From contig JBAZXO010000002.1 in the NCBI GenBank assembly GCA_041659785.1, positions 1 through 53,478 on the forward strand: a stretch of DNA of 53,478 nt. The letters run 5' to 3'. The notes below the pieces were generated by a model that searched no databases, was not told the DNA's origin, and worked only from the letters and a program-made list of their open reading frames with translations. Made by a program: the position numbers and the translations under genes. Numbering within the stretch: position 1 is the stretch's first letter; each line of letters begins with the position of its first letter. Below, piece by piece: positions 8,232 through 50,846 of the stretch. The DNA comes from Minisyncoccota bacterium (GTDB taxonomy: Bacteria > Patescibacteriota > Minisyncoccia > Phycocordibacterales > UBA9973).

Positions 8232-8293
8232 TCACCTCTCCCCTTCGCCCCTCTCCATAATTTTAGAATTATGGAGAGGGGTTGGGGGTGAGG
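8232..8293. repeat. Palindromic mini-element, CCCCTCTCC/GGAGAGGGG family
   Basis: 15-bp stem CCCCTCTCCATAATT/AATTATGGAGAGGGG with C-rich and G-rich flanks; overlaps the amidase 3' end. Confidence 0.8.
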
Positions 8294-9144
8294 ATATTTT
8301 TTTTAGTTGGGAAAAAGTAATTTTTTATCCCTATCGTGGTAAGACTAGACATGTTTTTATAAGCGGCAAGACGTGTACTTTTCGTTCTAAATTTTTTTTC
8401 GTAAATATAACCATATTCTATTAAAACTGAACGCACAGAAGCATTGAGCGTGTTATTAGCACCGATCGCAATTAGTTTTTGATCAGGAGTTAAGCCACCA
8501 GCTTCTGGTTTCCATGTACTTGTGATGTATTTTTTATTTAATTGTAAAAAAATATCAGCAGCAAGCTGTCCACTTTCTCTAGAGTTAGCAAACTGTCCAT
8601 CTGGCATATAAATAGTAAAACCTTTATATTGTCCAACTGTCCAACTCTTGGGCCGTGGATAATCATTAAAGTGAATATGCACCATTGCGTCTATTTTGTT
8701 TTCATCAGCCCATTTATTAAATCCATACAAACGAAGAGCAATGTCTTCGCTCACACGATGATGAGGAATATTGTCTTTTGGTATAAAATTACCACTAATA
8801 ATATTATTATTCATTATTTTTTTTGCAGCCTGTTCAAAGGCTAAAATAGCATCTTTCTGTGTGAGAAAATCTGCAAATTCTTTTGTATAGCCTTCACTAT
8901 CACGAGTAATATAAACGTCAAACCTTTTATCTTTCTTTAAGAGACCATAAATCTGAGTCGCCACAGCTAAATTCATATCGGCTTCTTTTATGTTCCCATA
9001 TTGTGCTCCCCAAACCTCGTTATCATGTCCTGGTATCAATAAAATCTTAATTATTTTGGCGACACTGGCTTCTACCTTTAAAAGTGGTACAAGGAAAAAT
9101 ATTGGAAGAAAAAAAAGTATTAATAGTGATCTTTTCATTAACAT
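8269..9144 (-). CDS. N-acetylmuramoyl-L-alanine amidase (Amidase_3)
   Basis: Signal/TM; IPGH...E, HIHFN and LIEYGY zinc/catalytic motifs. Confidence 0.85.
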   Translation of the reverse strand: MLMKRSLLILFFLPIFFLVPLLKVEASVAKIIKILLIPGHDNEVWGAQYGNIKEADMNLAVATQIYGLLKKDKRFDVYITRDSEGYTKEFADFLTQKDAILAFEQAAKKIMNNNIISGNFIPKDNIPHHRVSEDIALRLYGFNKWADENKIDAMVHIHFNDYPRPKSWTVGQYKGFTIYMPDGQFANSRESGQLAADIFLQLNKKYITSTWKPEAGGLTPDQKLIAIGANNTLNASVRSVLIEYGYIYEKKFRTKSTRLAAYKNMSSLTTIGIKNYFFPTKKNILTPNPSP

Positions 9145-9158
9145 TGTATGATTATAGC
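9145..9158. promoter_or_regulatory. 14-bp bidirectional leaderless promoter
   Basis: + strand TATGAT 6 nt before mutM ATG; - strand TG-C-TATAAT 6 nt before amidase ATG. Confidence 0.6.
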
Positions 9159-10151
9159 ATGCCAGAATTACCAGAAGTCGAAACTACAACGCGAGGCCTA
9201 AGAAAAGCAATTTTAGGCCTAACAATAAAAGACGTGTGGACGGATTTATCAACAAAAGATAAACGTCAAAAGGGGTCCATCGCCAATCCGAAGTTTTTTA
9301 CCATATTTAAAAAAGAAATTTTAAATAAAAAGGTTATATCAGTAGAAAGACGAGCAAAAAATATTTTAATAAATCTTTCCGGAAGCCCACGCCATGTCGG
9401 GGCAAGTAAAACCATACTGATACATTTAAAAATGACTGGGCATCTACTTTATGGAAAATATAAATTTACTCCCTCCCCAAGGCCAGACCTTAAGAATTCA
9501 AAAAGATCTGGCCTTATTAAGGGGTTTTGGACCCCTAATGAATCTGGCCCCCTTCATGACCCCTATAATAGATTTGTGCATGTGGTTTTTACTTTCTCAA
9601 ATAAAAAAAATTTAGCTTTCTCTGATGCTCGAAAATTCGGAAAGATAACTCTTCTTGACCCCGAAGGAAAGAGTACTTCCTACGGGGCAGGTACAAAAAC
9701 TGGCTACCTTGCTCACCTTGGGCCAGAACCACTTGATAGAAACTTTACCTTTGAAAAATTTAAGAAATGCCTGTCCGCCTCTTGGCGGAGGAAAATAAAA
9801 ACTATTTTAATAGACCAGAGCATCATTGCTGGTATTGGAAATATTTATTCTGATGAAATACTCTGGCGAGCTGGTGTACATCCAGAACGAAAAGTTCAAA
9901 AAATTAAAGAAAAAGAATTGAAACTGATATTCAAAGCAATAAAAGAAACATTAACAAAAGGCATAGATTTCGGAGGAGATTCAATGTCAGACTATCGTAA
10001 TATTCATGGTCTACCAGGTAAATTCCAAATACATCATGAAGCCTACAGGCGCACAGGGGAAAAATGCAGAAAACCAAACTGTAAAGGTATCATAAAAAGA
10101 AAAATAGTAAACGGCCGTAGCGCACACTTTTGCTCAGTACATCAGAAATAA
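9159..10151 (+). CDS. mutM: Formamidopyrimidine-DNA glycosylase
   Basis: MPELPEVET N-terminus (start moved to 9159), HLKMTG, DARKFG, AGIGNIYSDE, C-terminal zinc finger. Confidence 0.96.
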   Translation: MPELPEVETTTRGLRKAILGLTIKDVWTDLSTKDKRQKGSIANPKFFTIFKKEILNKKVISVERRAKNILINLSGSPRHVGASKTILIHLKMTGHLLYGKYKFTPSPRPDLKNSKRSGLIKGFWTPNESGPLHDPYNRFVHVVFTFSNKKNLAFSDARKFGKITLLDPEGKSTSYGAGTKTGYLAHLGPEPLDRNFTFEKFKKCLSASWRRKIKTILIDQSIIAGIGNIYSDEILWRAGVHPERKVQKIKEKELKLIFKAIKETLTKGIDFGGDSMSDYRNIHGLPGKFQIHHEAYRRTGEKCRKPNCKGIIKRKIVNGRSAHFCSVHQK

Positions 10152-10260
10152 AAAAGTGAAATATAAAATTTAGAAAGCCTTGCGCAGCCGGGTAGGCGAG
10201 CAGTTCGCTGGCAAAGCTTTGCCAGATAGATTGCTTTATAAATTTTGATATTTTATTTTT

Positions 10261-10734
10261 TTATAATTTACAAATCCTAAATAGAGCTATACCTAACGCA
10301 ACAGAGACATTCAGGGACTCTTTTTGGCCACGCATTGGTATTTCAGCGATGACATCACACTTTTTGAGATTTTCTTTAGAAATGCCAGCTACTTCTTCCC
10401 CCACAAGAAATGCATTTTTGTTTTTTGTTTTTACTTTTTTATAGTCAACTGACTTTTTATCTTGTTCTAAACCAATAATAAAAAAATTGTCCCGCCTTAA
10501 TCTGCGAAAAATGGCGGGCAAGCTTTTTTTAGATTCCCATAATACATATTCTTCTGCGCCTAATGCAGATTTTGCAAAATCCCCTCTCTTTCTGCCGAAA
10601 CGATCCAGCGGTGCTGGTGTGTAACCAGTCAAATAAATTTTATTTATGCCAGCCGCATCCGCAGTACGAAACATCGCGCCTACATTTTCTACGCTTCGTA
10701 TGTTATGAAGTATTAAAATATTTTCTTTTTTCAT
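10261..10734 (-). CDS. TrmH/SpoU family RNA methyltransferase
   Basis: HNIRSVENVGAMFRTADA; IPMRGQKESLNVSVA SPOUT knot. Confidence 0.9.
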   Translation of the reverse strand: MKKENILILHNIRSVENVGAMFRTADAAGINKIYLTGYTPAPLDRFGRKRGDFAKSALGAEEYVLWESKKSLPAIFRRLRRDNFFIIGLEQDKKSVDYKKVKTKNKNAFLVGEEVAGISKENLKKCDVIAEIPMRGQKESLNVSVALGIALFRICKL

Positions 10735-12014
10735 TATTTTAAAAAGTTTCTATTGCGCATGTTTTTATGATAAGCAATAGCGAATCTATGCGCCTCACTG
10801 TTTGCTAATAAAATCTCTCTCTCGTATTTTAAACCAAGATTCTTATCTCCCATAATAGCTTTTGGTTTATGTCGCTCGTCTTTTAATACTGAGACTATTG
10901 GAATATTAATTTTCAAACTAGATAAAACTTTCTTTGTGGCATTTATTTGAGCTATTCCACCATCCACAACTATCAAGCTCGGATAGGTCCATTCTGTATG
11001 CGCCAAACGCCTTTCTAAGACTTCTTTTAATGCTCCTGTGTCGTTTGCATCAATTTGTGTTCTTATTTTAAATTTTTTATATTCATTTTTTGCCACTTCT
11101 CCATCTTCTAAAACTACCATAACACCAACCATATTTTTTCCTCCCATGTGTGCTATGTCGTAGGCTTCAACTCTAAAAGCCTCACCTCTCGTAATTTTTT
11201 CGAGCGAGGAATTCTGCTTGGCAGTACGTAGTGAGAAAAAATTATGAGAGGTGGGGTTTTCTTTTATTAAAGCCACATCATTTATATGCTGTAAGGCAAA
11301 AATTTGTCTTTTAATTTCTCCCGCCTTTTCAAATTCACGCAATTTAGAATATGCATTCATTTCTTTCTTTAAATTTGCTAAAACTTTTTTCTTTTTGCCT
11401 TCAAAAAACAATTTAATGTTTTTAATATTTTGCAAATACAATTTTTTGTCATCTAAATCTGGCACTAAATTTATTTGTTTATAAAATTCAAGATAATTTT
11501 TACTTTTTTCGTCCAAGAACGGGAAAATTCTTCTTACTATTTTTAAAGCCTCTCGAAGTTGTGTTCCACTAGTATATGGTCCGTATATTTTGTTAAACAC
11601 CGAGTGTTTAACATTCCTACCTCTAACAACAATCACTTTCGGTAACTCATTTACGCCATGGCGTAAATATACTTTTGTAATACAAACATAGTTAAAACTC
11701 TTATCCGATTTTTCTTTAGTATTATATTTCGGCTGATATTTTTTAATTAAATTTGCCTCAAGTATCAAAGCTTCAAGTACGCTGTCGGTCTCCTGCCAAT
11801 CAATTCTATCCGCCTTGAAAACCATATCCACAAGAATTGGACCTCTCGTCTCTATTAGATCTTTACCAAAATAACTTTTTACTCTATCTTTGAGTGATGT
11901 AGCTTTACCAATATACAAAATTTCCCCGCCAGCGCGGGCAGGCTTTCCTTTTAAGAAAAAGTACACGCCGGGCTTGTCAGGAAGTTTTACTTTTTTTAAA
12001 GTTTCATTTTTCAT
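10734..12014 (-). CDS. uvrC: Excinuclease ABC subunit C (short form)
   Basis: PGVY..YIGKA GIY-YIG; PKYN; VEAYDIAH and LIVVDGG RNase-H-like domain; ends without HhH motifs. Confidence 0.9.
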   Translation of the reverse strand: MKNETLKKVKLPDKPGVYFFLKGKPARAGGEILYIGKATSLKDRVKSYFGKDLIETRGPILVDMVFKADRIDWQETDSVLEALILEANLIKKYQPKYNTKEKSDKSFNYVCITKVYLRHGVNELPKVIVVRGRNVKHSVFNKIYGPYTSGTQLREALKIVRRIFPFLDEKSKNYLEFYKQINLVPDLDDKKLYLQNIKNIKLFFEGKKKKVLANLKKEMNAYSKLREFEKAGEIKRQIFALQHINDVALIKENPTSHNFFSLRTAKQNSSLEKITRGEAFRVEAYDIAHMGGKNMVGVMVVLEDGEVAKNEYKKFKIRTQIDANDTGALKEVLERRLAHTEWTYPSLIVVDGGIAQINATKKVLSSLKINIPIVSVLKDERHKPKAIMGDKNLGLKYEREILLANSEAHRFAIAYHKNMRNRNFLK

Positions 12015-12075
12015 ATTTTTCTATTTACTCCAACCCCCGAACGAAAGCCTTCGGCTTCATACGGGGCATGCTTTT

Positions 12076-14838
12076 TTATTTTCGTAGTACTTTCTTCAAA
12101 TATCTACCAGTGTACGATTTGTTATTATTAGCTACATCCTCTGGAGTACCTTTAGCTACTATATTACCACCATTTACTCCTCCTTCAGGACCAATATCGA
12201 TGATATAATCTGAACTTTTTACGATATCTAAATTGTGTTCAATAAGTACAACAGTGTTACCCTTAGAAACTAATTTATTTAAAACTTCTAGAAGTTTATG
12301 AACATCATCATAATGCAGACCAACAGTTGGTTCATCTAAAAGGTAAATAGTTTTTTCTAAATGTGGACGATAAAGCTCACTGGATATTTTTACTCGTTGT
12401 GCTTCTCCGCCTGATAAAGTCGTCGCTGACTGCCCTAACTCCAAATATCCTAAACCTACGTCCATAAGAGTTTGCAACCTGTCAGAAATAGCAGGAATAT
12501 CTTTAAAAAAGACTAATCCATTTTCTACGGTCATATGAAGCACTTCATAAATATTTTTTTTCTTATATTTTACGGTGAGTGTTTCTTTATTAAAACGTTT
12601 TCCATTACAAACATCACAAGTAACATAGACGGTGGGCAAGAAATGCATTTCCACGGCTATTTCCCCATTTCCTTCACAAGCTTCACAGCGTCCACCCTTT
12701 ACATTGAAAGAAAAACGATTAGATTTCCACGCCCGGAGCCGTGCTTCTTCGGTCGCTGCGAAAATGTCTCGAATATGAGTAAATGCGCCAGTATAAGTAG
12801 CAACATTAGAGCGTGGAGTTCTGCCGATTGGTGACTGATCAATTAAAATAGCCCGTGATAAATATTCAGTTCCAGAAAATGAAGAGCAATTAAAAACTTT
12901 AGCTGTACGATATTTTCTTTCGTAACGAGCCTGAAGATTTTTATAAAGAATCTCATACATAAAAGAACTTTTTCCAGAACCAGACACTCCGGTGATAGAT
13001 GTCATCACACCGAGGGGTATTTCCACATTTAAATTATTTATATTAAAAATATTTCCACCCGCAATACGCAAGGCTCCCTTCCCCTGTCGTCTCTTTTTAG
13101 GAATTTCTATTTTTGTTTCTTCTCTTAAATAAGAAAGGGTTCGTGAATTATTGGTATTCTTCTTTGCAGTTAATAAATCATCAAGATAACCAGAGACGAT
13201 AACCTCCCCGCCGTGTACTCCAGCTTTATGTCCAATATCTACAATATAGTCTGACGCATAAATAGTGTCTTCGTCGTGTTCTACAATTAAAATAGTATTT
13301 CCTAAATCACGAAGGTTTTGCAAGGTTTTTATAAGTCTATCGTTATCTCGCTGATGGAGCCCTATTGTTGGTTCATCGAGCACATAGAGTGCCCCCACGA
13401 GTCTAGAACCGAGCTGAGAAGCTAAGCGAATACGTTGTGCTTCCCCACCAGAGAGAGTGTTCGCTTTACGTGAAAGCTGAAGGTAATCCAAACCCACATC
13501 GAGCATAAATTGAAGGCGAGCCTCAATCTCCCGTACGACGGGTACAGATATTTCACGTTCTTGTTCTGTAAGTTTAAGATTTTTGAAAAAATCATGCGCA
13601 TCTTTTATGGAAAGTGAAGCAAGGTCTAAAATATTTACTCTACTTTTTTTAAGCTTATTTTTTTCTTTTCCTTTTTCTACTGCAACCTCTGCCTCTAAGA
13701 AAACATTTAAGGCCTCAGGACGCAAGCGCGCGCCATGGCAAGTATCACATGGTTCATCTCCCATAAAATACTTTGAACCAAGACCGTTACAAGTAGGGCA
13801 TGCCCCATAAGGAGAATTGAAAGAAAATAATCTTGGCTCGACTTCTGGAAAAGAAAAGCCGTCATTCTTGCAAGCAAATTTTGATGACATAATAAATTCA
13901 TCATCAGCAATTTTAATAGTTACTAGTCCATCAGATTCAAGAAGTGCACGCTCTAAGGCCTCAGAAAGTCTCATACGGCTCGTCTCAATATCATCTTTAA
14001 ACTCATGGAGGGCATATTGGTCTACTAAAATATCTATATTGTGGGCTTTATTTTTTGAAAGAGTAATTTGCTCTCGCAATTTCTTCATTGTGCCATCAAG
14101 GCGAATTTCAGCAAAACCTTTCCCAAGTAAGTCATAAAGAAGTTGATAATATTCCCCTTTTCGCCCACGAACAACTGGAGAAAAAATACTAATTTCTGTT
14201 TCATCCCACTCAACTCCCATAATTTTTCGTTTACCTTTCTCGAGATTTAAAGAAGAAGAATTCTGCAGCCCGTCGTAGGGCAAGGAATTTTTCTTCTTTA
14301 GGTCTCCACCCTGAGAAGTTAATTTCTTTGTCCTACTACGGCCGTCAGAAATCAACTTCTCATGGTCTCGCATTTTTTCCAAAACAAAATTTAAAATTTC
14401 TTCATTAGAAAGTTTTTTAATTTCTTCTCCACAAATAGGACAGTGTGGGTGCCCAATACGCGCATACATAACACGCAGATAATCATAAATTTCTGTTATC
14501 GTCGCTACTGTAGAGCGAGGATTATTAGAGCGAGATTTTTGATCAATAGATATCGCTGGAGAAAGTCCTGTAATCTCATCCACGTCTGGCTTGGGCATTT
14601 GATTTAAAAATTGTCGCGCATAAGAAGAGAGAGATTCCACATATCTTCTTTGTCCTTCGGCAAAGATAGTGTCGAAGGCAAGAGAGGATTTCCCAGATCC
14701 GGAAACACCAGTAATAACCACCATCTTATTGCGTGGCATTTCTACGTCTATATTCTTTAAGTTATGGGTCCGTGCCCCTTTTACTATTATTTTACTTGCC
14801 CCGCCTTGGCGTGGGTCTACATTTTTCTCTGTTTTCAT
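12076..14838 (-). CDS. uvrA: Excinuclease ABC subunit A
   Basis: [20 protein letters not shown], two LSGGEAQR signatures, Zn modules; start moved to ATG 14838. Confidence 0.97.
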
Positions 14839-14969
14839 AAAAATTAAGCTATATAACACAACTACACCCCGCCATGTTCCTAGGGGGTGTCTATCTATAT
14901 TCAACTACCAATACTATACCACAAAAACTCTCAAAAGTCTGGTTTGCGTTAGGTCTTGCCTAACGCAGT

Positions 14970-26567: not shown

Positions 26568-27734
26568 TTATTTTATTTTTATAAATTTATGTTTCCCAAT
26601 TTTATAAACATGACCTTTAGCAACCACCTCCTCTAAAATTAATTTTTTATTGTCAGTCATATCTTTAATCGCTCCTGCTTCAAACAAACGTCGAATTTCT
26701 CCTTTCGAATCAAACATTCTAGCTTTTAGAAGTATTGGGGTAAGCAACCCCTCTCCTTCTATTTCTTCTACTATTTCTGGAATTTCTTTCTTTTGAAAAG
26801 TATTTACGAAGTTTTCTTGCGCCTCTTTAGCCTTTTTCTCTCCGTGGTAAATCTTTACTATTTCATAAGCAAGGTGCATTTTTGCATCACGAGGATTCAT
26901 TTGGTTTATCTTGTTTACTTCATCCATGGGAACACGAGTACAAATCTCAAAAGCTGATGAAATCAAAGAATCGGGCCAACTCATAACTTTACCAAACATA
27001 TTCTCTCCACCGTCTTCCAAGGTAACCATATTACCTTCACTTTTCCCCATTTTTTTACCAGTAGGATCTACTAAAAGCTTAGTGGTTAAAACATATTTTT
27101 CTTTTCCTCGACTTTTCATCATCGTACGTCCAACAAGCATATTAAAGGTTTGGTCATTACCACCTATTTCCATATCCACATTCATGGCAACAGAATCATA
27201 TCCTTGCATAAGTGGATAAAAAAATTCATGTAAGTATACTGGTTGTCCTTCTTTTATTCTTCTTTCAAACATATCTCTTTCAATCATTTGCTGAAGAGTA
27301 AACTCTGAAGCAATTTCCATCACTTCTTCAAAGGAAAGTTTGGAGAGCCATTTGCTATTAAATTTAACTTGAACATTTTTGATATCCAAAATTTTACCGG
27401 CTTGTTTAGTATATGATTTTAAATTTTCTTTTATTTCTTTTGTCGAAAGTTGTTTTCTGGTTGCTGTTTTATCTGTAGGGTCACCTATCCTGCCCGTAAA
27501 ATCACCAATAAGTAAAATTACTTTATGTCCCAGGTCTTGTAGCTCTCTTAATTTAAGAAGAGTGGAACCATGACCAATATGAAGAGTGGGCCCAGTAGGA
27601 TCAATACCGTTATATACAGAAAGAACCTTGCCAGACTGAAGGACTTTCTTTAATTCTTCTTTAGAGGGGTAGATATTCTCTACGCCGCGTTCTAAAAAAT
27701 TATTTATTTTTTTCTCATCTGTTATCACTTTCAT
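26568..27734 (-). CDS. tyrS: Tyrosine--tRNA ligase
   Basis: GIDPTGPTLHIGH (HIGH), YPLMQGYD, GGNDQTFN, KKMGKS (KMSKS), C-terminal S4. Confidence 0.97.
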   Translation of the reverse strand: MKVITDEKKINNFLERGVENIYPSKEELKKVLQSGKVLSVYNGIDPTGPTLHIGHGSTLLKLRELQDLGHKVILLIGDFTGRIGDPTDKTATRKQLSTKEIKENLKSYTKQAGKILDIKNVQVKFNSKWLSKLSFEEVMEIASEFTLQQMIERDMFERRIKEGQPVYLHEFFYPLMQGYDSVAMNVDMEIGGNDQTFNMLVGRTMMKSRGKEKYVLTTKLLVDPTGKKMGKSEGNMVTLEDGGENMFGKVMSWPDSLISSAFEICTRVPMDEVNKINQMNPRDAKMHLAYEIVKIYHGEKKAKEAQENFVNTFQKKEIPEIVEEIEGEGLLTPILLKARMFDSKGEIRRLFEAGAIKDMTDNKKLILEEVVAKGHVYKIGKHKFIKIK

Positions 27735-33256: not shown

Positions 33257-33311
33257 AGTTTCATATTATACTATTTCTAAAATAGAAGACACTTTTAAGT
33301 CTTATTAACTC

Positions 33312-33331
33312 TGTTGATAAGCTGTGGATAA
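33312..33331. promoter_or_regulatory. DnaA-box pair upstream of dnaA
   Basis: TGTTGATAA (33312-20) and perfect TGTGGATAA (33323-31). Confidence 0.75.
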
Positions 33332-33336
33332 AAAAG

Positions 33337-33388
33337 CCTCTCCCCCAGCCCCTCTCCTTAGTAAGGAGAGGGGAGGTTTGGGGTGGGA
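33337..33388. repeat. Palindromic mini-element, CCCCTCTCC/GGAGAGGGG family
   Basis: CCCCTCTCCTT-agt-AAGGAGAGGGG with C-rich and G-rich flanks. Confidence 0.8.
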
Positions 33389-33454
33389 CCCGAATCTCGA
33401 AGGCCGGATGAGGTGAATTTGATTTATTGTTGGTTTTATTATAGACTTTATTAT

Positions 33455-33589
33455 ATGTCACAAACATACCAACCTAAAAAGAGAAAAAGAGCCCGAGCCC
33501 ATGGGTTTTTGGTTAGATCAAGAATAAAGACTGGTAAAAAGGTCTTAAAAAGAAGACGCCAAAAAGGTAGGGCTAAACTTTCAGTTTAA
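33455..33589 (+). CDS. rpmH: 50S ribosomal protein L34
   Basis: [18 protein letters not shown]...RRRQKGR; start moved to ATG 33455. Confidence 0.96.
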
Positions 33590-35511: not shown

Positions 35512-35583
35512 ACCTCACCCCGTCTCGCAAGCGAGCCACCCCTCTCCATTTTAGAAAATGGAGAGGGGAAAAAGGGGTGAGGT
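35512..35583. repeat. Palindromic mini-element, CCCCTCTCC/GGAGAGGGG family
   Basis: CCCCTCTCCATTTT/AAAATGGAGAGGGG stem; 35516-35544 is the exact reverse complement of 50159-50187 inside rsmA. Confidence 0.85.
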
Positions 35584-35587
35584 GCAT

Positions 35588-36982
35588 TTATTTTAATCCT
35601 AACTCCCACAAGAAAGAATCTTTTTTGTTTACAAAAAATAGGTAATTTTCTCCATCATCCAATGCAAGTTTAATGCTGTCTGTGTCTTGTCCTCCTTGCA
35701 CAGTTACTGGGTCTGCAATTATTGTGGCATTTCCAGTTTTAATATCTATTTTCCAAATTTGATCTGAGAAAGAAACTTCTCCTTGATACCAAGTATCTGG
35801 ATAGCTCCCCGCGTTAATATTTTTAGGTACTCCGCAATAAGCAGTGTCACTTGTTTTATTCCAGACACATTTTTCTGGTAAAGTTTTCACTCCGAGTGGG
35901 TCTGTTGTTTTTGTGTCTGTGTGATAAACATTGAGAAATAAATTATTATCACTATATAGAACTAATTTTCCACTAGGACTTGTTAGTGTGGTGAGTCCAT
36001 TTATACCTCCTAATACTTTGGTTAAATTTTTATTAGTTGGATCCATCATATACATATATCCTTGTACGCTAGAGGCGGGCTTAGTGGTGAAGGTAATCAT
36101 TTTACTATTGGGCCACCAAGATAACCATTCTGTAAATGCTGAACTGAAAACTTGAACTTTCTTATTAGTTGCGAAGTTTAGAGTCGTCCCTATCATATTA
36201 TCTCCAGAGTTAAATAAATAGAATAAACTTCCAGCATCAGAAGACAGGCTTACATCTTTTATATCATCAGGTAAGAATGTTCCCTTTACTTCATTGCTGC
36301 TCGTTGTGTCTGCGCCCAATATTTCTTTAGGAAGATTACCAACAAAAGTAGCAATTGTTTTAGCATCCCCTTTTAAATATCTCATTATCACCGAGCCTCC
36401 ATTGTTGCCAAAGAAAACTTCGTATATTTTAGGAATTATTGTTATGGAAAATTTCTGTTCGAGGATTCTGTCTGCAAAAGTTTGATAGATGTTTCCCGTA
36501 GCTCTCTCTACGTATCTCAATGCAGGCATAAATTCAGTTGGTGGAGCAATTGGTTTTACTAAAGTCTTTTTTAGACCCCCCGCACCCCCCTTAGCAGGGG
36601 GGACAGGATTAGCTCCCTCTCCTGATAAGGGGAGGCTGGGAGGGGTTGTATTGTTTGGTGTTACTACAGGGACATCTTTTAATCTTTCTTTAGAAAATAC
36701 AGTAAATCCAGCTATAGGCATACTAGAAATTTTTCTTAATTTTACTAGTAAGTCTGGATTTGTGGGAGTTGGTTCATATCCAGAAACATCTACTGGAGGA
36801 GTAACTGCTGGAGTTACTGGTTTGTTGTTATTTCCAAATGGATTAAATTGGGAACCAAAATTTGTGCCACCCGTGTCAACGCCCAGTGTGCCTGTTGGTT
36901 GCTGTAAATATAAAAATCCAAATACCCCAACTACAACGATGGCTAGAATGATTATTAAAAGTATAAAGTTTCTTTTTGACAT
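35588..36982 (-). CDS. Membrane-anchored exported protein, possible beta-propeller
   Basis: N-terminal TM, Pro-rich linker, repeated S.D/W.P strand motifs; carries a palindromic insertion at 36576-36645. Confidence 0.6.
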   Translation of the reverse strand: MSKRNFILLIIILAIVVVGVFGFLYLQQPTGTLGVDTGGTNFGSQFNPFGNNNKPVTPAVTPPVDVSGYEPTPTNPDLLVKLRKISSMPIAGFTVFSKERLKDVPVVTPNNTTPPSLPLSGEGANPVPPAKGGAGGLKKTLVKPIAPPTEFMPALRYVERATGNIYQTFADRILEQKFSITIIPKIYEVFFGNNGGSVIMRYLKGDAKTIATFVGNLPKEILGADTTSSNEVKGTFLPDDIKDVSLSSDAGSLFYLFNSGDNMIGTTLNFATNKKVQVFSSAFTEWLSWWPNSKMITFTTKPASSVQGYMYMMDPTNKNLTKVLGGINGLTTLTSPSGKLVLYSDNNLFLNVYHTDTKTTDPLGVKTLPEKCVWNKTSDTAYCGVPKNINAGSYPDTWYQGEVSFSDQIWKIDIKTGNATIIADPVTVQGGQDTDSIKLALDDGENYLFFVNKKDSFLWELGLK

Positions 36983-42408: not shown

Positions 42409-42847
42409 AAGTTAGTTCATAAAGTTATAAAGTTCATAAAGTCCTTAAAGTTAAGATCCTTAATCCAAAGTTTTAATAAAACCTGATAATAACTTAGAAA
42501 TCTCTAGAGTTAAACCATACATTTTATCAAAATCTCTTTTGGGAAGGTACCTTAACTCTAAACCTAAGTTTAACATAGATCTGACTTCCCCAGCAGAGCC
42601 TTTTGATATAAAAAGAAAACTTTTTAATTCTTTGTTTGTTCTCCTCTCAAAACCTTCTGCAATATTATTCATTATTGAAACAGAGGCTCTTTCTATTTGA
42701 TTTTTGAAACTAAAATCTTTGCAAGTTTTAAATACCGTGTAAATATTAAGTGTTAATTCTTTTCCTTTTTGCCAAGATATTATTTCTTCGAATTTTTCTA
42801 TTTTCATGCTACTTTATAAACTTTACAACTTTTTACTTTATAACTAG
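42409..42847 (-). mobile_element. Putative cassette: four-helix-bundle gene bracketed by inverted 8/9-nt repeat arms
   Basis: 5' arm 42809-42847, gene 42460-42807, 3' arm 42409-42454; mobility inferred, not shown. Confidence 0.5.
42460..42807 (-). CDS. Four-helix-bundle protein (23S rRNA IVS protein / bAvd-like family)
   Basis: FEEIISWQKGKEL, QIERASVSIMNNIAEGFERRT.KE...FL.ISKGSAGE. Confidence 0.9.
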   Translation of the reverse strand: MKIEKFEEIISWQKGKELTLNIYTVFKTCKDFSFKNQIERASVSIMNNIAEGFERRTNKELKSFLFISKGSAGEVRSMLNLGLELRYLPKRDFDKMYGLTLEISKLLSGFIKTLD

Positions 42848-43516: not shown

Positions 43517-46500
43517 TTAAGTATGTCCATGTGCCGCTGGTGGTGTATGTGCTGATTCTGTTGGTTTTTCATGAGGTTTTTCTTCTTCATGCTCTTCTTC
43601 TGTTTTATGTGCTGTATTTTCTTTTGGTGCTTCATGACTCTTCTTGTCTTCTTTGTGTTTTGTTCCTCCCCCCTCTTGTTCTTTCTCAAGTGCCGATTTG
43701 TCTTTTCCTAAATCAAGATTTTCCTTTTTAAGATTATGAAGATCTTTTTCTGCAGTTTTTAGTTTAGTTAATTCAAATTTTCTTTCGCCATTTTTTATTG
43801 TTTCATTAAATAAACCTACAACCCTTGGATCATCTTTCCCTGCTTTTTCTTGTTCAACAAGTCTTTTTAGTTCTATTTCGTTCATCTTTTCAGCAAATGA
43901 TATTTTTGTTAACTCCGATTCTATTTTTCCTGTATTTACAGTAAATCCCTTGTCTTTATCTCCAGTTACTAATCCATTTCCTGTGTCTTTTCCTGACGCA
44001 TCTTTTTCAATAAATTTATCTAATGATTCATGGAGTTTGTCTATTGATTTTATGTTTTCCGCTATCCTATCTGTTATTCCAGACATTTTCTTAAAGCCCT
44101 TTTCAAGTTCCTTGGTGAACTTAGATTCACCAGCTGCTTCTTTCATAGCATAATCTCCAGCACTTATACCACCTACACCCATACCACCCGTTACTCCCGT
44201 TGCTGTTCCCAAGGTTCCCATACCCATTGCTCCAGCAGCTACACCACCTACTGCTCCGCCAGTAAGAACAGCGGCTGTTCCACCGACGGCCATCTTTGTC
44301 ATCATAACTCTCTTGTGGTTTACATCGTTTGCTATTTTTGAATCATATACCATCTCTGCAAGTTTAGCTGGATCATTTTTATATGCTTCATTGTATCTTT
44401 TCCTATATGCTCCATCTTTACTAAAGTTATTTTTATCAATGATTTCACCAGTAAGATTTACGGTTGAATATGCTAGTGCCCCCAACAAACTATGGGCACC
44501 CACAAGAATATCATCACGAAATTCTTCCATTCTGGAACGGTTTAATTCGTCAGCTTTTGTGTAATATTCACCTTTGCTGTTTCTTACATTATGTTTCTTA
44601 GACCACTCCTCGACTTCCTTATCCGATTTGCCCGTTTTGTAAAGTTTCGATTCTTCTTTTAGAGCTTCAGATTTTCTTTCTCCAGCTCCTTTGAATCCAC
44701 CTTCTGTATTAGGCCTCAACCCTAATACACTTCTAGAGAAATCTAATCCAGATGCCTTAGACAAGGCTTTTCCTGCGCCCGATTTTCCAAAATCAAAAGA
44801 AGCTTTTTGTCCATAGTCTGCAGCCTTGAGAGTCGTTCTTGCCAAGAACCCACCAATACCTTTTGATTCAACTCCTGCCTTCTTTAGATTTTCACTGCTT
44901 GCTACAGTAGATGCTATTTTACCAATTGTTCCTGTTGCGAGCATTGCTGTTCCGCCCGTCACTGCTCCTAATGCAAGAGATGCACCAGTTTTTGCAGCAC
45001 CAAGTATTACCTCTCCAACTTTACCAGAGCTCTTTACTGCGTACATCATTGCTTTGTAAAGAAGGATATTAACTAAAATTAATGGTAAAAAGACCCCTAA
45101 ATACATTTTTATTGCTCCCGCTGGATCATCTGTACCACTAGCTTTTGGTATGAGTTCAGAAAATATATTTGAATGAAGTAATAAAAATATAAAATACAAA
45201 AAGAACATAAAAATTGGAGCCATAAATGCTGTTTTCAGCAAACGTTTTAACCAAGAATCCCAACCTATATATTCTAATCCTCCTAAAATTGGGACAGAGG
45301 AAGACATAAAAGCAAAAGGAGAAAAAATAATTAAAAACCAAAGCTCAACTAATCTAACTAAGAAAGCAAAACCTGCTACCCAAAGTACAAACACAGTATA
45401 GTACATTAATGATCCAGCCAAAATAGAAATTGCAATCAACATTCCAGCAGGTACAGTAGGCTCTTGTTTGACAAGATGACCGTCTATATATGTTTTTCTA
45501 AGTTCACTAAAGAAAGGTTCAGTTAGCGTTGTGGTAGGATTAAAACCACCAACTAAACCACCCGCTATATCTGTTTCGTTTCCTGTAAGTGCTACATATT
45601 TTCTTTGGTTTCCTTGTGCGTCTTTTGTATAAACACTTAATTTGTTATAAAAAGTTAAAGCTAAAATATTCGAAGCATCGATGATTACTTGAGTAAAGAA
45701 CATAGAAAAGTTTATGAGGAGTGCCACGACGATAACCTTCGCTATCATCTTTTTAACATCAGAACCACCAAGTCCAATAATTAATTTGATTGCAATATAA
45801 AGTAAGACAAGGATAAAGAAAAGATTTGAAAGGTCTCGAACGACTCCCCATGCTTGAGAAATAAAAGAATTTGTGAACAATCCACTACCCAATGAAATAA
45901 ACACTAAGATGTTAAAAAAATAAGCTGCAGTATAAAGGAAAAAAGCTGGTACGGTATAGAACATACCATAAGAAATTTGTATAGCACACCCAGGCCAGAT
46001 ACTAGAACCAGTACCTCCAGCAAAAAATACTCCGAATCCACACTGTTGTTTATTAATTTCTACTTCGAATGGCGTTGTCCCTCCTGGGGAAGCTGGAGCT
46101 ACTTGTCCCGTTGGTGTTGTCCCTGATGTTCCCGCTGGTATTTGTGTTACCGCCCCACCAACACCACCTGCAGTCCATGTTCCACCTCCATTACTTCCTG
46201 CCAATGTTTGACACTCAACAAAGGAATTAACTACCTGTGTTGGTGTTCCTTGTAAATTATAATTACAAGTTCCATTTCCTGTTGGTCCTGCTGGTGGTGG
46301 GGTGGTTGCTGGTATTTGTGTTACTGTTCCATCACGTGCAGTCCACGTTCCACCACCATTACTTCCTGCCGATTTTTGACAATCAGTTAAGTAAGCAGCT
46401 TGTTGAGTTTGCCCATATTTACATATTCCAGATAGATTTTGTTGTGCATTAATTTTACTTATCGGACTAAAAAGCCCGATAAGTGCAATGAATATTATTA

Positions 46501-46525
46501 TGTAAGGCAGAATTTTTCTAATCAT
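43517..46525 (-). CDS. VirB6/TrbL-like polytopic membrane protein
   Basis: Signal peptide; WGVVRDLSN, LLINFSMFF, RLVELWFLIIFSPFAF TM blocks; Gly-rich cytoplasmic tail; duplicated Cys module at N-terminus. Confidence 0.75.
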   Translation of the reverse strand: MIRKILPYIIIFIALIGLFSPISKINAQQNLSGICKYGQTQQAAYLTDCQKSAGSNGGGTWTARDGTVTQIPATTPPPAGPTGNGTCNYNLQGTPTQVVNSFVECQTLAGSNGGGTWTAGGVGGAVTQIPAGTSGTTPTGQVAPASPGGTTPFEVEINKQQCGFGVFFAGGTGSSIWPGCAIQISYGMFYTVPAFFLYTAAYFFNILVFISLGSGLFTNSFISQAWGVVRDLSNLFFILVLLYIAIKLIIGLGGSDVKKMIAKVIVVALLINFSMFFTQVIIDASNILALTFYNKLSVYTKDAQGNQRKYVALTGNETDIAGGLVGGFNPTTTLTEPFFSELRKTYIDGHLVKQEPTVPAGMLIAISILAGSLMYYTVFVLWVAGFAFLVRLVELWFLIIFSPFAFMSSSVPILGGLEYIGWDSWLKRLLKTAFMAPIFMFFLYFIFLLLHSNIFSELIPKASGTDDPAGAIKMYLGVFLPLILVNILLYKAMMYAVKSSGKVGEVILGAAKTGASLALGAVTGGTAMLATGTIGKIASTVASSENLKKAGVESKGIGGFLARTTLKAADYGQKASFDFGKSGAGKALSKASGLDFSRSVLGLRPNTEGGFKGAGERKSEALKEESKLYKTGKSDKEVEEWSKKHNVRNSKGEYYTKADELNRSRMEEFRDDILVGAHSLLGALAYSTVNLTGEIIDKNNFSKDGAYRKRYNEAYKNDPAKLAEMVYDSKIANDVNHKRVMMTKMAVGGTAAVLTGGAVGGVAAGAMGMGTLGTATGVTGGMGVGGISAGDYAMKEAAGESKFTKELEKGFKKMSGITDRIAENIKSIDKLHESLDKFIEKDASGKDTGNGLVTGDKDKGFTVNTGKIESELTKISFAEKMNEIELKRLVEQEKAGKDDPRVVGLFNETIKNGERKFELTKLKTAEKDLHNLKKENLDLGKDKSALEKEQEGGGTKHKEDKKSHEAPKENTAHKTEEEHEEEKPHEKPTESAHTPPAAHGHT

Positions 46526-46561
46526 TTTTGTTTTGAAACTTTGCTACTCTTCTTTCTGTTT

Positions 46562-48916
46562 TTAATATGAAGGCTCTCCAGTATAAGAGTAATCAGTTGG
46601 GCTAGCCTTAAAAATAATATTACAGTTTATGTCTATATTTATTAGACTGCTAATGTCTCCATACACATGTTGCGCATTTACCATAGGTAAATCGGTATAT
46701 CCTGGATTGCCTAAGTCATTTGTTGGGTTTCTAAATGTAAAGCCAGAAGCGTTCGCAGCATTTGCTTCAGCTTCCCATCCTAGTGGATTATAAGGCATTA
46801 TGCTTGTGTCTCCATGAGAATAACCGCTTACTATTGGTAAGTCGCAGAATTTATCTATTTCTTTTGTTCCACTTTGCGTGCTTTTTCCTTTCCCTGTTGT
46901 ATCGACTTCCCCCCAGCCTGCAGCAATTCTTTGGTTTGAGCATTTAATATTTAAGTCTTCCATGTTAAGTTTCTGATCCTTTAGGGTATTTAATTCATTT
47001 CGTGTGTTTTCTATACTAACCGTAGAAGAAATTGAAGGAATTATGGCATCATATTGTTTTGCTAATTCTATTAATTCTTTTTCTTCAGGAGAGCCCGAAA
47101 CTGGTTGAGTTGAAAAAGTTGAAGTCGCTAAGGTGTCAGCAATTGCACGCAATCTATCTAATGCTTGGGATTTTATTTGTTTTGCATCAATTAATTCCTT
47201 TAATTGTTGACGAAAACTATCTATTTCTTTTATGGCGTTTATATAAGTCGTTGCCCCAGGAAGTGAGTTTTTCATTTTTGTATTTATCCAACTTGTAAAC
47301 GAATCAACAGCAAACCTAAGTTCCTTTAGTGCAGCATTTGAGGCTCGTACTTTTAAGTTATCACTACTGCTGACGGCATCAGTAAATTTACCAGCAAAGA
47401 GACGTTGCTCTTCTTGCAGTCTATTTTCCCAAGCTTTATCTGGTCCTGGCAAGCATTGATCAAGAGTTTTAGCTTCTTGCGTCACTGGTTCCATTAATTG
47501 AACAATGCCAGGAACATAAAAGTTTGGACTGTTTGGATCTACATTATTTGGATTGGATGGGTTATTTGCATTACATAATGGATCAGTTGAATTACATGGA
47601 GGATTATCCATCAATCTAATTTCTAGGGTTGTGTTGTTTATTGCATCTTGTATGGTCTTTTTGAAATCACTAAGTACAATTACCGAATTCCAATTGAAGG
47701 TTGTGTTAGTTCCTGTGGCTGGGCTACTAAGAGTTTGTCCACCATAGCTCCAAGTGTCTGGGGTATTTGATTGGTTTGTTGTACTTGATAAGCTATTTAA
47801 ACCACTGCTTATAAATTTATTTAATAAAGCATCAAAGATTGCAGAAAGGCTGTTTCCCATAGCTGCGGCAAGTTCGGTTTGTCTTTGTCCCGAGGTCAAC
47901 GAAGTCATTATTTGATTAGAAACCACAGAACCAGGAGTAGTATTTACTAATCCTCCTGGGCAGGTATTTTTACCCTCCCATTCACCCTTAGCTAATCTAA
48001 GTTTTGCTTTAAAAACTACATCCCATTGTTCTGCGTCTATTCGCTCATTTTCTGTTGGGTTTAAAATATCTACGGGTGTTGGCATTAATGGTCTATAATT
48101 GCTAATAAATGCAGCTTCATCAAAGCTTGGTTTTTGAAATTCGTTTGTGCCGTTATTGTAGTCTGGATTAGATGGACAAGTTTGTGGAGACAAAAAGCCA
48201 TTTCCTTGTTGAAGAGTCGATGTAATTTTTTGTGCGTTATTTTGACTTGTGCCCTGCAGTCTTGCCGCGAGTTCATTGGTTGCAAGAATTTGAAACCCCA
48301 CATAATTATTTTGAGGATATTGAGTATTAACAAGAAAACCACTCCAACCACTATAATTAAAATTTTGGTAATTATTTAATGCTATAGGGTCTCTTAGAGC
48401 ATTACTCAAACTAAAAGCAGCATTGTCTGCAAGTGTTCTTTTGTAAGAGTTAATTATATTCAAAGAAAAATCTTTCCCGAAAGGATATTTTAAATTATCA
48501 TAACCAAACACACCTACTAGCGACCTTACTTCTGATTTTGCAATATCGTTAAAGAAAGAACTTGAATTCTCTACGAAAAGTGGTGATCCGTGAAAACCAG
48601 AATTTATCCAGTTCACTGTGCTTTGGGTTATTTTTTTAAGAAAAGATCTAGCTACAGCCATAAGAGCTTGTTTAATAAGCACTTCTGACCATTGTTTTAT
48701 TGAAAGAGAGGTATTCGTGACTGTTGATACTGAAGTTATCCAAGTAAAAGCCTTCGTTAGCCAAATTGCTGGGGCGCTAGGTATCTCAACAACCGGGACT
48801 ATTACTGCTTGTGCTTTTTGAGGATTAGAAAACAAAATAGATGGTGCTATTATTGAAATAATTAAAAGAGCAGAAATAAATTTTTTTATTTTATTTTTAA
48901 ATTTTATATTTTGCAT
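46562..48916 (-). CDS. Large exported protein of the T4SS-like cluster
   Basis: 784 aa; signal peptide; ITQSTVNWINSGF..SPLFV motif; coiled-coil C-terminal half with paired Cys. Confidence 0.65.
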   Translation of the reverse strand: MQNIKFKNKIKKFISALLIISIIAPSILFSNPQKAQAVIVPVVEIPSAPAIWLTKAFTWITSVSTVTNTSLSIKQWSEVLIKQALMAVARSFLKKITQSTVNWINSGFHGSPLFVENSSSFFNDIAKSEVRSLVGVFGYDNLKYPFGKDFSLNIINSYKRTLADNAAFSLSNALRDPIALNNYQNFNYSGWSGFLVNTQYPQNNYVGFQILATNELAARLQGTSQNNAQKITSTLQQGNGFLSPQTCPSNPDYNNGTNEFQKPSFDEAAFISNYRPLMPTPVDILNPTENERIDAEQWDVVFKAKLRLAKGEWEGKNTCPGGLVNTTPGSVVSNQIMTSLTSGQRQTELAAAMGNSLSAIFDALLNKFISSGLNSLSSTTNQSNTPDTWSYGGQTLSSPATGTNTTFNWNSVIVLSDFKKTIQDAINNTTLEIRLMDNPPCNSTDPLCNANNPSNPNNVDPNSPNFYVPGIVQLMEPVTQEAKTLDQCLPGPDKAWENRLQEEQRLFAGKFTDAVSSSDNLKVRASNAALKELRFAVDSFTSWINTKMKNSLPGATTYINAIKEIDSFRQQLKELIDAKQIKSQALDRLRAIADTLATSTFSTQPVSGSPEEKELIELAKQYDAIIPSISSTVSIENTRNELNTLKDQKLNMEDLNIKCSNQRIAAGWGEVDTTGKGKSTQSGTKEIDKFCDLPIVSGYSHGDTSIMPYNPLGWEAEANAANASGFTFRNPTNDLGNPGYTDLPMVNAQHVYGDISSLINIDINCNIIFKASPTDYSYTGEPSY

Positions 48917-48954
48917 TTTCTTATTTTAACTCTTTATATTATACGTCTTTTTGT

Positions 48955-49887
48955 TTAATTGTTCAATTTATTATTGATGATGTCTGTAAGTTTTTTTACA
49001 GCAGATTCTAAAAGAGTGGCATTGTTTTGATATTGGCTTATTCCGCTGAGTGCTACGATCACATCACTATCATAAAGCCTTATATCACTTGTATTTTCTG
49101 ATAATCTTTCTAATGCGTTCAGAATATCTAAATGTGTGGATGCAAGAAATTGTGGTACGTTCATTTTTGCCATTTCATTTATTGTTCCTTGTGTTTGTTT
49201 AATAATTGGGTCAAGCTCTACGAGCACACTTGAGTCAACGTTGTTTTCATCAATTACAAATTTTTGCAATACATCTAAAACAGTTCCTTTGTTTGGATAT
49301 TTTTGTTGAATATTATTAAGCGTGTCGTTGTAACTTTTTACAGCCTTAATGCTGTTGTCATTTATTACTTTTATATCAGAAAGTAAAAATATTTTTCTTA
49401 TGGGAGTATTTTGTATTTTTGAAGCAAGAGAATTACTTAATTGGTCTGCTGTATTTTGGTCCATTATTCCATTTTGGTTTAGTGCTGCTGTCGAAGAGAA
49501 AAGTTCTCTAGAGAATTTATCTGTTTGAGTTAGATTTTCTTCATTTTGAATATTTTCGGCATTTGCTTGGTTTGCATCATTTTCTTTAGCTTTTAGTTTG
49601 TTTATTGCTACACTGTCAGGTGTTCCAGGAGTCGTTTCTTTCTTGGTTGGGTCAAGGCCGTATAAACCTTCTTCCCAATCTGGCACTCCGTCGCCATCTT
49701 CATCTTTATATACTAATTCTTTTAATGTGGTGGTGTAAGCTAGCCCACTTTCTTGATTTTTAAAAACAGAATTGATGGAATTTTTAACCACTGAAGTGTT
49801 TTTTATTAAAAAAAGTGCAACAAGAAACAGCACCGCAAAAGTGATTGAAAGTATCCTTTTATGTTTTAACCAAATTTCTTTAATTAT
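48955..49887 (-). CDS. Membrane-anchored protein with DxDGDG Ca-binding motif; start ATA (49887) or GTG (49833)
   Basis: DEDGDGVPDWEEGLYGLDP; frame is open from ATA 49887, 6 nt after TG-T-TATAAT; no ATG before the TM segment. Confidence 0.65.
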   Translation of the reverse strand: MIKEIWLKHKRILSITFAVLFLVALFLIKNTSVVKNSINSVFKNQESGLAYTTTLKELVYKDEDGDGVPDWEEGLYGLDPTKKETTPGTPDSVAINKLKAKENDANQANAENIQNEENLTQTDKFSRELFSSTAALNQNGIMDQNTADQLSNSLASKIQNTPIRKIFLLSDIKVINDNSIKAVKSYNDTLNNIQQKYPNKGTVLDVLQKFVIDENNVDSSVLVELDPIIKQTQGTINEMAKMNVPQFLASTHLDILNALERLSENTSDIRLYDSDVIVALSGISQYQNNATLLESAVKKLTDIINNKLNN

Positions 49888-49930
49888 CTTTTAATTATAA
49901 CAATAAGGTATAAGCAAAGCAACGAATTTA

Positions 49931-49968
49931 CCCCCTTTCCTTAATAAGGAGAGGGTTGGGGTGAGGTG
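49931..49968. repeat. Palindromic mini-element, CCCCTCTCC/GGAGAGGGG family (degenerate)
   Basis: CCCCCTTTCCTTA-A-TAAGGAGAGGGTTGGGGTGAGG. Confidence 0.7.
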
Positions 49969-49973
49969 AATTT

Positions 49974-50846
49974 TTATTTAGCTAAATTTATCCAATCAGA
50001 GAGAGATAAATCTTCTGCCCTTTTGTTCCCCAGTTCCAATACACAGGCGTTGCCTGTGTATTTTAATATATTTTTTAGATTTGAGGAGAGTTTTTTTCTT
50101 TTGTGCGCGAAGCCAGTCTTTACTATTTCCCAAAATCTGGTTTCAAAATTCCCCTCTTGAGGGGTGGCTCGCTTGCGAGACGGGGTGGATATTCCACCTC
50201 CCCCTAAAGGGTACTCCTCAAGAGGAGAATTGGTGAATAATTTTCTAGAAATATTACTAATTTTAATTATTGCTGAATCTACCTTAGGTGCAGGGGAAAA
50301 GTATCGTGCGGCCACCTTCATTATCATCTTTGGTTCCCCATAAGCCTTGACTGATATGGATAAAATGCTTTCTTTGTTATCACGAGCGACTATTCTCTTT
50401 GCCACCTCGTGCTGAACCATTAAAACCATACATTCAGGCTGTTTTTTCTCTGTTAGAAATTTTTTCAAAATTGCACCAGTAATGTTGTAGGGGATGTTGG
50501 CGATTATTTTATAGTGAAATGTTTTCGAAAAACTTGGAAACGTTTCGCTAACGTTGAATTCTAAAATATCTTCATTTAATAAAACTAAAGCACCAGATTT
50601 TATTTCTGGAGCAAATTTTTCTTTTAGAAAAATAAAAAGTTCTCGATCTTTTTCCACAGCGATGACAATTCCCCGCCCCGCCCCATCGGGGTAAACATTC
50701 TCTAAAAGTTTCTCTGTGAGCGCTCCTTTACCTGGACCTATTTCTAAAATTACATCATTCTTTTTTATCTCCCCTGCTTCAACTATTTTTCTGAGCGCTA
50801 TTTCAGATTTTAGAAAATTTTGTCCGAGGGATTTTTTTGCTTTCAT
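49974..50846 (-). CDS. rsmA: 16S rRNA dimethyladenosine transferase RsmA/KsgA with in-frame insertions
   Basis: AKKSLGQNFL, LEIGPGKG, IIANIPYNIT, FSPAPKVDSA, RAEDLS. Confidence 0.96.
   Translation of the reverse strand: MKAKKSLGQNFLKSEIALRKIVEAGEIKKNDVILEIGPGKGALTEKLLENVYPDGAGRGIVIAVEKDRELFIFLKEKFAPEIKSGALVLLNEDILEFNVSETFPSFSKTFHYKIIANIPYNITGAILKKFLTEKKQPECMVLMVQHEVAKRIVARDNKESILSISVKAYGEPKMIMKVAARYFSPAPKVDSAIIKISNISRKLFTNSPLEEYPLGGGGISTPSRKRATPQEGNFETRFWEIVKTGFAHKRKKLSSNLKNILKYTGNACVLELGNKRAEDLSLSDWINLAK

Follow-up and report, generated by a model that had tools for sequence, protein, structure and literature searches.

The 53,478-nucleotide stretch of DNA analysed here (the window, C2:1-53478; contig JBAZXO010000002.1 of assembly GCA_041659785.1, Minisyncoccota bacterium) contains short nested palindromes of the BoxC/PIT/TMECO type, which are probably insertional elements akin to MITEs (miniature transposable elements with inverted repeats), related to small cassettes carrying a DUF559 nuclease gene and tolerated in frame inside genes. 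The genome (686,725 bases in 7 contigs, 36% G+C) holds about 40 of these palindromes in at least four subfamilies (SF1 to SF4), together with three DUF559 genes (Vsr-like nuclease, PF04480), all bracketed by ends of the family. The comparisons below establish the family and its boundaries, its insertion polymorphism, its residence in frame in intact essential genes, and a physical and statistical link to DUF559. The initial annotation of the window had described a hairpin family similar to MITEs or repetitive extragenic palindromic (REP) elements; it missed both the identity with the published BoxC/PIT/TMECO motif and the DUF559 genes between family ends. The DnaA protein is 85–89% identical to those of many Candidatus Nomurabacteria/Paceibacterota genome bins, indicating that the source is an ultra-small Patescibacteria bacterium of the candidate phyla radiation (CPR), Candidatus Nomurabacteria; the sequencing runs that contain the source sequence are groundwater and mine-drainage metagenomes.

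The word CCCCTCTCC (complement GGAGAGGGG) occurs seven times in the window, on both strands, against 0.14 expected, and none of 100 shuffles reached seven. About 20 perfect CCCTCTCC...GGAGAGGG hairpins are spread across the genome. An nhmmer profile built from 20 aligned copies recovered 27 SF1 loci in the genome (E<0.02) with shared boundaries, in the order A-CCTCACCCC, optional side hairpin, CCCCTCTCC, loop, GGAGAGGGG, optional side hairpin, GGGGTGAGG-T, the loop being A/T-rich and palindromic in its own right. SF2 has the form TACCCC(T/C)ACCC..CCTCCCCCTA..TAGGGGGAGG..GG(A/T)GGGGGTA (about 10 loci); SF3, the type found in rsmA, reads AATTCCCCTCTTGAGGGG, side hairpin, GGGGTGGA..TCCACCTCCCCC ..CTCCTCAAGAGGAGAATT (4 loci), and SF4 reads ATACAA-CCCCTCCC..CCTCCCCTT..AGGGGAGG..CCCCCTG..AGGGGGG. 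Clear copies were split from noise with subfamily-wise nhmmer profiles, and degenerate ones were recognised by cross-genome alignment. Elements are 40–90 nt long and end in terminal inverted repeats, A-CCTCACCCC/GGGGTGAGG-T in SF1 and TACCCCCACCC/GGGTGGGGGTA in SF2. The outer arms are not Watson–Crick partners in about half of the SF1 copies (CCTCTCCCC with GGGGTGAGG, or CCTCACCCC with GGGGAGAGG), but each remains a valid mirror/triplex partner for the inner arm, in agreement with the definition published for the motif. No Rfam family was found on the window hairpins.

Each window copy is missing from the orthologous site in most relatives, and the copies are therefore insertions. The SF1 copy at 8232-8296 occupies the whole gap between the convergent ruvA and amidase genes and, as the initial annotation had proposed, supplies the amidase C-terminus, its last eight codons (ILTPNPSP) and stop being element sequence; the amidase orthologues end in ...GIKNYFFPK*, just before the element start, and abut ruvA, with the element absent there in six relatives. 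The convergent junction of jag and a gene for a 464-aa protein is element-free in most of 12 relatives and carries an independent SF1 copy in G006. Orthologues of the 464-aa protein, which matched no Pfam or NCBIfam family, are present in 21 of 25 relatives; most lack the segment encoded at 36576-36645, and a related peptide occurs in G007. Of 57 relatives, only one shows an SF1 copy next to the DnaA box in the dnaA-rpmH spacer; most have about 20 nt at this place, and several hold unrelated palindromes. The partial copy at 49931-49968 is replaced by 27 other letters in a contig of about 94% identity from run X4.

The extra ~27 aa of RsmA behave likewise: among 30 orthologues, no distant relative and only a minority of the close ones have this segment. 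At the same codon, four of the close relatives have the peptide SPQPSPYKGEG, which is the translated SF1 hairpin CCCTCTCCTTATAAAGGAGAGGG, and other inserts occur at other positions of rsmA. A comparable site is the LepA loop MEY....YILNLI, short in most relatives and occupied in six species by six different palindromes. SF1 hairpins are distributed unevenly over the genus (G000 20, G006 27, G020 15, two other genomes 9 and 7, the remainder 0–3), and a different loop variant predominates in each hairpin-rich genome, as amplification within genomes would lead one to expect. Summed metagenome contig depth rises from about 50–80 to 1,000–2,900 (20–60 fold) exactly over two elements, with many different flanks. 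Shared boundaries, presence or absence at orthologous sites and genome-specific loop variants thus bear out the proposal of a dispersed REP/MITE-like family, and the two findings named beforehand as contradicting it, an RsmA segment conserved in distant orthologues and copies lacking common boundaries, were both contrary to what was seen.

Copies in frame lie in rsmA, lepA, ligA, mnmA and the genes for a 673-aa and the 464-aa protein, at least six copies within open reading frames (ORFs). Those beyond the window with canonical SF1 sequence correspond to MnmA aa 314-335, LepA aa 64-85 and LigA aa 173-199. The inserts are spanned by NCBIfam equivalog models for MnmA, LepA, LigA and RsmA and leave the ORFs open. 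In RsmA, aa 1-289 match profile positions 1-253 of TIGR00755 with 205 bits, above the cut-off of 171, and the Pfam RrnaAD match ends at aa 212; from where the two alignments break, the insert would sit at the junction between the methyltransferase and C-terminal domains. The arms are used in different reading frames among hosts. Pyrimidine arms are stop-free in every frame and purine arms open in most; one frame of the purine arm GGGGTGAGG includes the stop TGA and the A/T loops restrict the choice further, so that only some insertions stay open. The inserts would be translated as a Pro/Ser/Leu ... Gly/Glu/Arg loop.

At two places, half-elements separated by about 430 bp flank a gene of 112-116 aa with a match to Pfam DUF559 (E = 1e-31 to 1e-34) in the layout [CCTCACCCC-hairpin]-gene-[hairpin-GGGGTGAGG], that is, with SF1 ends. 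The third DUF559 gene has SF2 ends, TACCCCCACCC..CCCTCCCCCTA.. and ..TAGGGGGAGG..GGGTGGGGGTA, and the repeat subfamily therefore matches the nuclease gene. SF3 brackets a DUF559 gene in the relative G005 (L048). When all 675 genes were ranked by the inverted repeats in their flanks, the three DUF559 genes came 13, 16 and 17. Likewise, 46% of 52 DUF559 loci, drawn from the genus and 200 genomes of the phylum, had a flank score of at least 12, versus 0.5% of 201 displaced controls (p = 1e-12). A solo SF1 palindrome equals a cassette minus the segment between its two inner hairpins, which are direct repeats, and a solo SF2 palindrome equals a cassette minus the segment between the direct repeats TAGGGTGAGGG and TAGGGGGAGG. 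The residues of the DUF559 motif DF..E.DG..H..D..R are shared by at least 90% of the 47 homologues compared; among solved structures the closest is 3HRL, an 'endonuclease-like protein' that is itself uncharacterised, and a survey of the PD-(D/E)XK nucleases published in 2012 classed DUF559 with Vsr and a Vsr-fold homing endonuclease (PMC3424549).

Empty and filled alleles of a cassette were found at the metG|tatD junction. In seven relatives the junction is empty, with 1-4 nt from the metG stop to the tatD ATG; G000, G001 and G011 have a cassette of about 440 bp with the 11-bp terminal inverted repeats of SF2, and in G016 and G022 the metG stop is followed by a cassette of a different subfamily. 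Among 14 genomes, this junction never carried a solo palindrome alone, indicating that gene and palindromic ends travel together. Complete cassettes are also found in frame within leuS (in a species of the same genus) and, elsewhere in the order or phylum, within tgt, thrS and other genes. As a separate observation, a different small hairpin, ACACAGGGGAACCCTGTGT, stands just 5' of tatD in G007 and G014 (L235, L237), relatives without the DUF559 cassette.

The association extends beyond the phylum. A collection scan returned more than 120 loci with the exact composite CCTCACCCC-N-CCCCTCTCC-loop-GGAGAGGGG, in Planctomycetota, Chloroflexota, Bacteroidota, Xanthomonas, Pseudomonas, cyanobacteria, Acidobacteriota and others. 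Most copies are solo; at six of 114 motif loci in other phyla, tblastn placed a DUF559 gene within 41 bp, always in the layout [arm-hairpin]-gene-[hairpin-arm], and the cassette layout is present in Betaproteobacteria, Beijerinckiaceae, Hymenobacter and others. The DUF559 gene of Escherichia coli K-12, ycjD, has an inner hairpin at its stop codon, with TMECO number 9 about 150 bp further on. Among 201 genomes of the phylum, at least five BoxC-type hairpins were found in 12 of 33 DUF559-positive versus 5 of 168 DUF559-negative genomes (odds ratio 18.6, p = 2e-7). As an observation on the E. coli locus (NC_000913.3 1351200-1351450; L181), about 35 nt of the ycjD 3' end are duplicated between the stop-codon hairpin and TMECO number 9, which suggests a past rearrangement at the element.

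From these structures we propose that the parent element would be a small cassette, in which a gene for a DUF559 nuclease (Vsr-like PD-(D/E)XK) lies between terminal inverted repeats and inner hairpins. As the latter two are direct repeats, a deletion from one to the other would turn the cassette into a solo palindrome, and the solo palindromes are most likely such gene-less, MITE-like derivatives. Copies would survive at the gene boundaries of a compact genome or in frame in permissive protein loops, where the insert would simply be translated as a loop, as with the Rickettsia palindromic elements (RPEs). That the DUF559 nuclease itself moves the elements is a tentative proposal, about which we are doubtful. 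A gene with palindromic ends would then constitute a minimal mobile element without a classical transposase, whose derivatives lacking the gene would be spread in trans, and essential proteins could harbour either form in frame. By extension, small DUF559 (YcjD-like, Vsr-fold) nucleases might be the missing partner enzymes of BoxC/PIT/triplex-motif palindromes throughout bacteria, although we regard this, too, as rather unlikely.

Several observations weigh against this scheme. SF3 and SF4 occur in the source genome without a cognate DUF559 gene there. No target-site duplication was found at four filled/empty comparisons (rsmA, jag/464-aa, metG|tatD and amidase/ruvA), at AT-rich junctions where a duplication of 1-2 nt could escape detection. 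The LepA tree is poorly resolved: the best tree implies four changes at metG|tatD, its well-supported branches force only one, and it is too weak to exclude a single gain followed by losses. The phylum-wide association was computed from raw genome counts, uncorrected for phylogeny and genome size, and it weakens to 8 of 33 versus 5 of 168 (p = 1.7e-4) when two hairpins are subtracted per DUF559 gene. That different subfamilies recur at a few sites may be due not to targeting but to selection for places where insertions are tolerated. As for read-through at the RNA level, the sequence was found in DNA metagenome runs only. We know of no nuclease activity, recognition site or transposition chemistry for DUF559.

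Other points on this side of the balance are those that an alternative would accommodate, in which the palindromes are an independent, older class of repeats and DUF559 is a homing-type passenger that uses them as recognition sites and homology arms and is irrelevant to their solo spread. Solo copies outnumber nuclease genes more than tenfold, and three complete DUF559-negative genomes of the phylum keep 7-11 hairpins. Moreover, the gene of the SF2 cassette, with its own short inverted repeats (TAGGGTGAGGG/CCTCACCCTA), lies exactly in the loop of an otherwise solo palindrome, and Vsr-fold homing endonucleases share a clade with DUF559 (PMC3424549). We nevertheless consider a passenger improbable, because metG|tatD is either empty or holds a full cassette with its ends, and the same end architecture recurs in cassettes at unrelated loci and in unrelated phyla.

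Much less probable still is that the hairpins are terminators or RNA-stabilising stem-loops selected at gene ends for the benefit of the host, a function the initial annotation had also entertained. The stems are strong, many copies lie 1-7 nt from stop codons, and T-rich tracts follow the stem in three window copies (8232-8296 on both sides; 35513-35583 and 49931-49968 on the plus strand). Against this, T-rich flanks amount to only 12 of 54 (22%) versus a background of 11%, the T-run of 49931-49968 is on the wrong strand for rsmA, and three of 16 intergenic copies stand between divergent genes; the copies within essential ORFs, where termination would be lethal, and the orthologous junctions that lack elements in relatives argue in the same direction. 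An earlier E. coli study, as far as it is cited in PMC4666352, was negative for promoter and terminator activity of this motif type. Some copies may terminate transcription by accident of position, which would not be a property of the family. We give least credence, a very slight one, to mobilization by another enzyme of the genome, such as its two IS200/RAYT-like Y1 transposase homologues (RAYT, REP-associated tyrosine transposase). Both genes, each flanked by perfect palindromes, have the classic REP/RAYT layout, but the hairpins beside them, AACTGTCAAACACCCGATGTTTGACAGTT and TTCCCGGACACCAGGTGTCCGGGAA, bear no relation to the CCTCACCCC/CCCCTCTCC family, whose ends bracket DUF559 genes and not these two. 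The insertional, cassette-related origin proposed above is thus the reading that we retain.

The window copies and their neighbours are listed in Table 1. The copies read as first described; those at 8232-8293 and 35512-35583 proved complete, that at 33337 runs to about 33418 rather than to 33388, and 49931-49968 is only a partial copy. The two intragenic copies are likewise family elements, not of one subfamily: the rsmA copy belongs to SF3 and was missed by the SF1 hidden Markov model (HMM), whereas 36576-36645 scores weakly with the SF1 (E ~9) and SF2 (0.28) HMMs. The latter aligns over about 80 nt with elements 3' of rsmA in two relatives (L015, L018), which makes it a decayed member of the fourth subfamily, SF4. 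The 29-nt match noted between intergenic and coding copies, 35516-35544 being the exact reverse complement of 50159-50187, corresponds to a side-hairpin module that the two copies have in common. Folded as single-stranded DNA, complete copies lie far below shuffles (z = −7.9, −8.0 and −5.5; −24.2 kcal/mol for that at 8232-8296, with z = −7.9), and the partial and decayed ones do not. The three blocks of the published motif are present at 8248-8293, as CCCCTCTCC ... GGAGAGGGG TT GGGGGTGAGG, where the third block, read in reverse as GGAGTGGGG, can be aligned with GGAGAGGGG, giving a single T.A:T triad, and likewise at 35539-35582.

Table 1. Palindromic elements of the window and associated features (coordinates in the window).
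Feature	Position	Strand	Evidence and context
Complete SF1 nested palindrome CCTCTCCCC-CCCCTCTCC-loop-GGAGAGGGG-GGGGGTGAGG	8232..8296		nhmmer E = 3e-16
N-acetylmuramoyl-L-alanine amidase gene	8269..9144	-	Pfam Amidase_3
DnaA-box consensus TGTGGATAA, dnaA-rpmH spacer	33324..33332		read from the sequence; 4 nt from SF1 copy; kept in relatives
SF1 copy with side hairpin CCCGAATCTCGAAGGCCGG and degenerate outer arm ATGAGGTGAA	33337..33418		nhmmer E = 1e-9
Complete SF1 copy with side module GTCTCGCAAGCGAGCCA	35513..35583		fold z = -8.0; between convergent jag (R3H) and 464-aa gene
464-aa membrane-anchored protein gene	35588..36982	-	hosts in-frame copy
Degenerate SF4 element, in frame, ~aa 113-136 (TTPPSLPLSGEGANPVPPAKGGAGG) of 464-aa protein	36576..36645	-	alignment with L015 and L018 elements
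Partial SF1 copy: degenerate inner hairpin and one outer arm GGGGTGAGG	49931..49968		nhmmer E = 1e-5; fold z = -1.2; just 3' of rsmA
rsmA (ksgA), intact despite insert	49974..50846	-	Pfam RrnaAD and NCBIfam TIGR00755
SF3 nested palindrome, in frame in rsmA, ~aa 206-233	50147..50231		SF3 profile; fold z = -5.5

Further observations concern the same sites and genome. A lone CCCCTCTCC at 26748-26756, within a class I tRNA synthetase gene (26568-27734, minus strand), has no partner arm and was rejected as a family copy, being either a chance occurrence or a decayed remnant. RsmA has a second genome-specific insert, YPDGAGRG (~aa 51-58; window 50672-50697, minus strand), encoded by the small, GC-rich, hairpin-like TACCCCGATGGGGCGGGGCGGGGAAT and missing from all 29 aligned orthologues. 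The spacer from rpmH to the first DnaA box (window 33257-33460; loci L284-L340) is a hot spot in Nomurabacteria, with palindromes that differ by species (L285, L288, L296, L301, L302, L326). The IS200/RAYT-like genes lie outside the window at C1:290855-291517 (Pfam Y1_Tnp, E = 1e-7) and C2:153826-154521 (similar by eye only), each with a perfect palindrome on both sides, and form a separate REP/RAYT-type system. The window also encodes, at 42460-42807 on the minus strand, a 115-aa '23S rRNA intervening sequence protein' (PF05635, E = 4e-30) between TTATAAAGTT-type inverted repeats; with a flank score of 16, in the top 1% of genes, it could be a further small gene of the cassette-like kind. Outside the window, a Cas2-like/PaaX_M gene (C2:112167-112538) stands between two copies of the palindrome ATCTACGCTATAGCGTAGAT.

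Taken together, the setting of a known sequence type is new here: it occurs in a CPR genome, including in frame within essential genes, and has a candidate partner gene that we did not find in the literature; our search for work tying DUF559, ycjD or BoxC together found nothing beyond Holder et al. (2015) and the 2012 PD-(D/E)XK survey. New, to our knowledge, are the empty and filled metG|tatD alleles, the solo palindrome as a probable deletion derivative of the cassette, the pairing of subfamily with nuclease inside a single genome, loop variants peculiar to each species, the comparison of the dnaA spacer in 57 genomes and the phylum-wide co-occurrence test. In ultra-small CPR genomes, such insertions make protein lengths vary and give rise to artefacts of annotation. 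The cassette ends supply a candidate enzyme for BoxC-type repeats and a candidate function for the large DUF559 family; should the nuclease be uninvolved, a clean RPE-like case outside Rickettsia would still stand.

The closest known system is that of the BoxC/PIT/TMECO repeats. These have been recognised in E. coli since the 1990s and occur in hundreds of genomes, and their origin, function and enzyme are not known. The 23 copies of E. coli K-12 are all intergenic according to Holder et al. 2015 (PMC4666352), who also report related motifs in more than 260 genomes; by their account, a single strand of the motif forms a triplex in vitro, none being detected in duplex DNA or in vivo, and the motif loci are unusually variable between strains, with no link to mobile elements by BLAST. 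The sequences correspond closely, CCCTCTCCC-loop-GGGAGAGGG-NNN-GGGGTGAGGG in E. coli (PMC4666352 Table 1) and CCCCTCTCC-loop-GGAGAGGGG-NN-GGGGTGAGG here, and in both, the second and third blocks are mirror images with G.G:C, A.A:T and T.A:T triads, judged here from sequence alone. Both families also comprise many dispersed, similar copies (here 27 SF1 and about 10 SF2 loci in 687 kb) with variable loops and flanks. Unlike the E. coli copies, which are reported as one-sided (hairpin and one arm) or paired, always outside genes and linked to no mobile element or enzyme, ours are mostly two-armed nested palindromes, several of them in frame in essential genes, and their arms bracket DUF559 genes; PMC4666352 mentions DUF559 0 times.

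By behaviour, and as far as the descriptions in PMC10969869 extend, the family resembles the RPEs, palindromic repeats of a reduced genome that likewise sit in frame within housekeeping genes unrelated to one another and add function-compatible extra peptides. RPEs are, however, about 100-150 bp long, as against 40–90 bp of pure pyrimidine and purine tracts here, where there is no RPE-type conserved peptide and there is a candidate partner gene. With the REP/REPIN-RAYT systems our family shares short dispersed palindromes, a low-copy gene flanked by the same palindromes and a match between repeat subfamily and gene variant; it differs in that the flanked gene encodes a PD-(D/E)XK Vsr-like nuclease (PF04480) and not an HUH/Y1 transposase, and in that copies also lie inside coding sequences. 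MITEs derived from insertion sequences are likewise small and non-coding, with terminal inverted repeats (9-11 bp here) and the structure of a gene-bearing unit minus its middle, and here, too, a longer gene-bearing element, the DUF559 cassette, has the same ends and inner hairpins; in our case no target-site duplication was seen at the comparisons given above, and the gene-bearing unit encodes no known transposase. Finally, like the genes for Vsr-fold homing endonucleases of the I-Bth0305I type (PMC3424549), the cassette is a small nuclease gene present as a discrete insertion, with clean empty and filled alleles at metG|tatD, but it does not lie in an intron or intein, and it has its own palindromic ends and dozens of gene-less copies.

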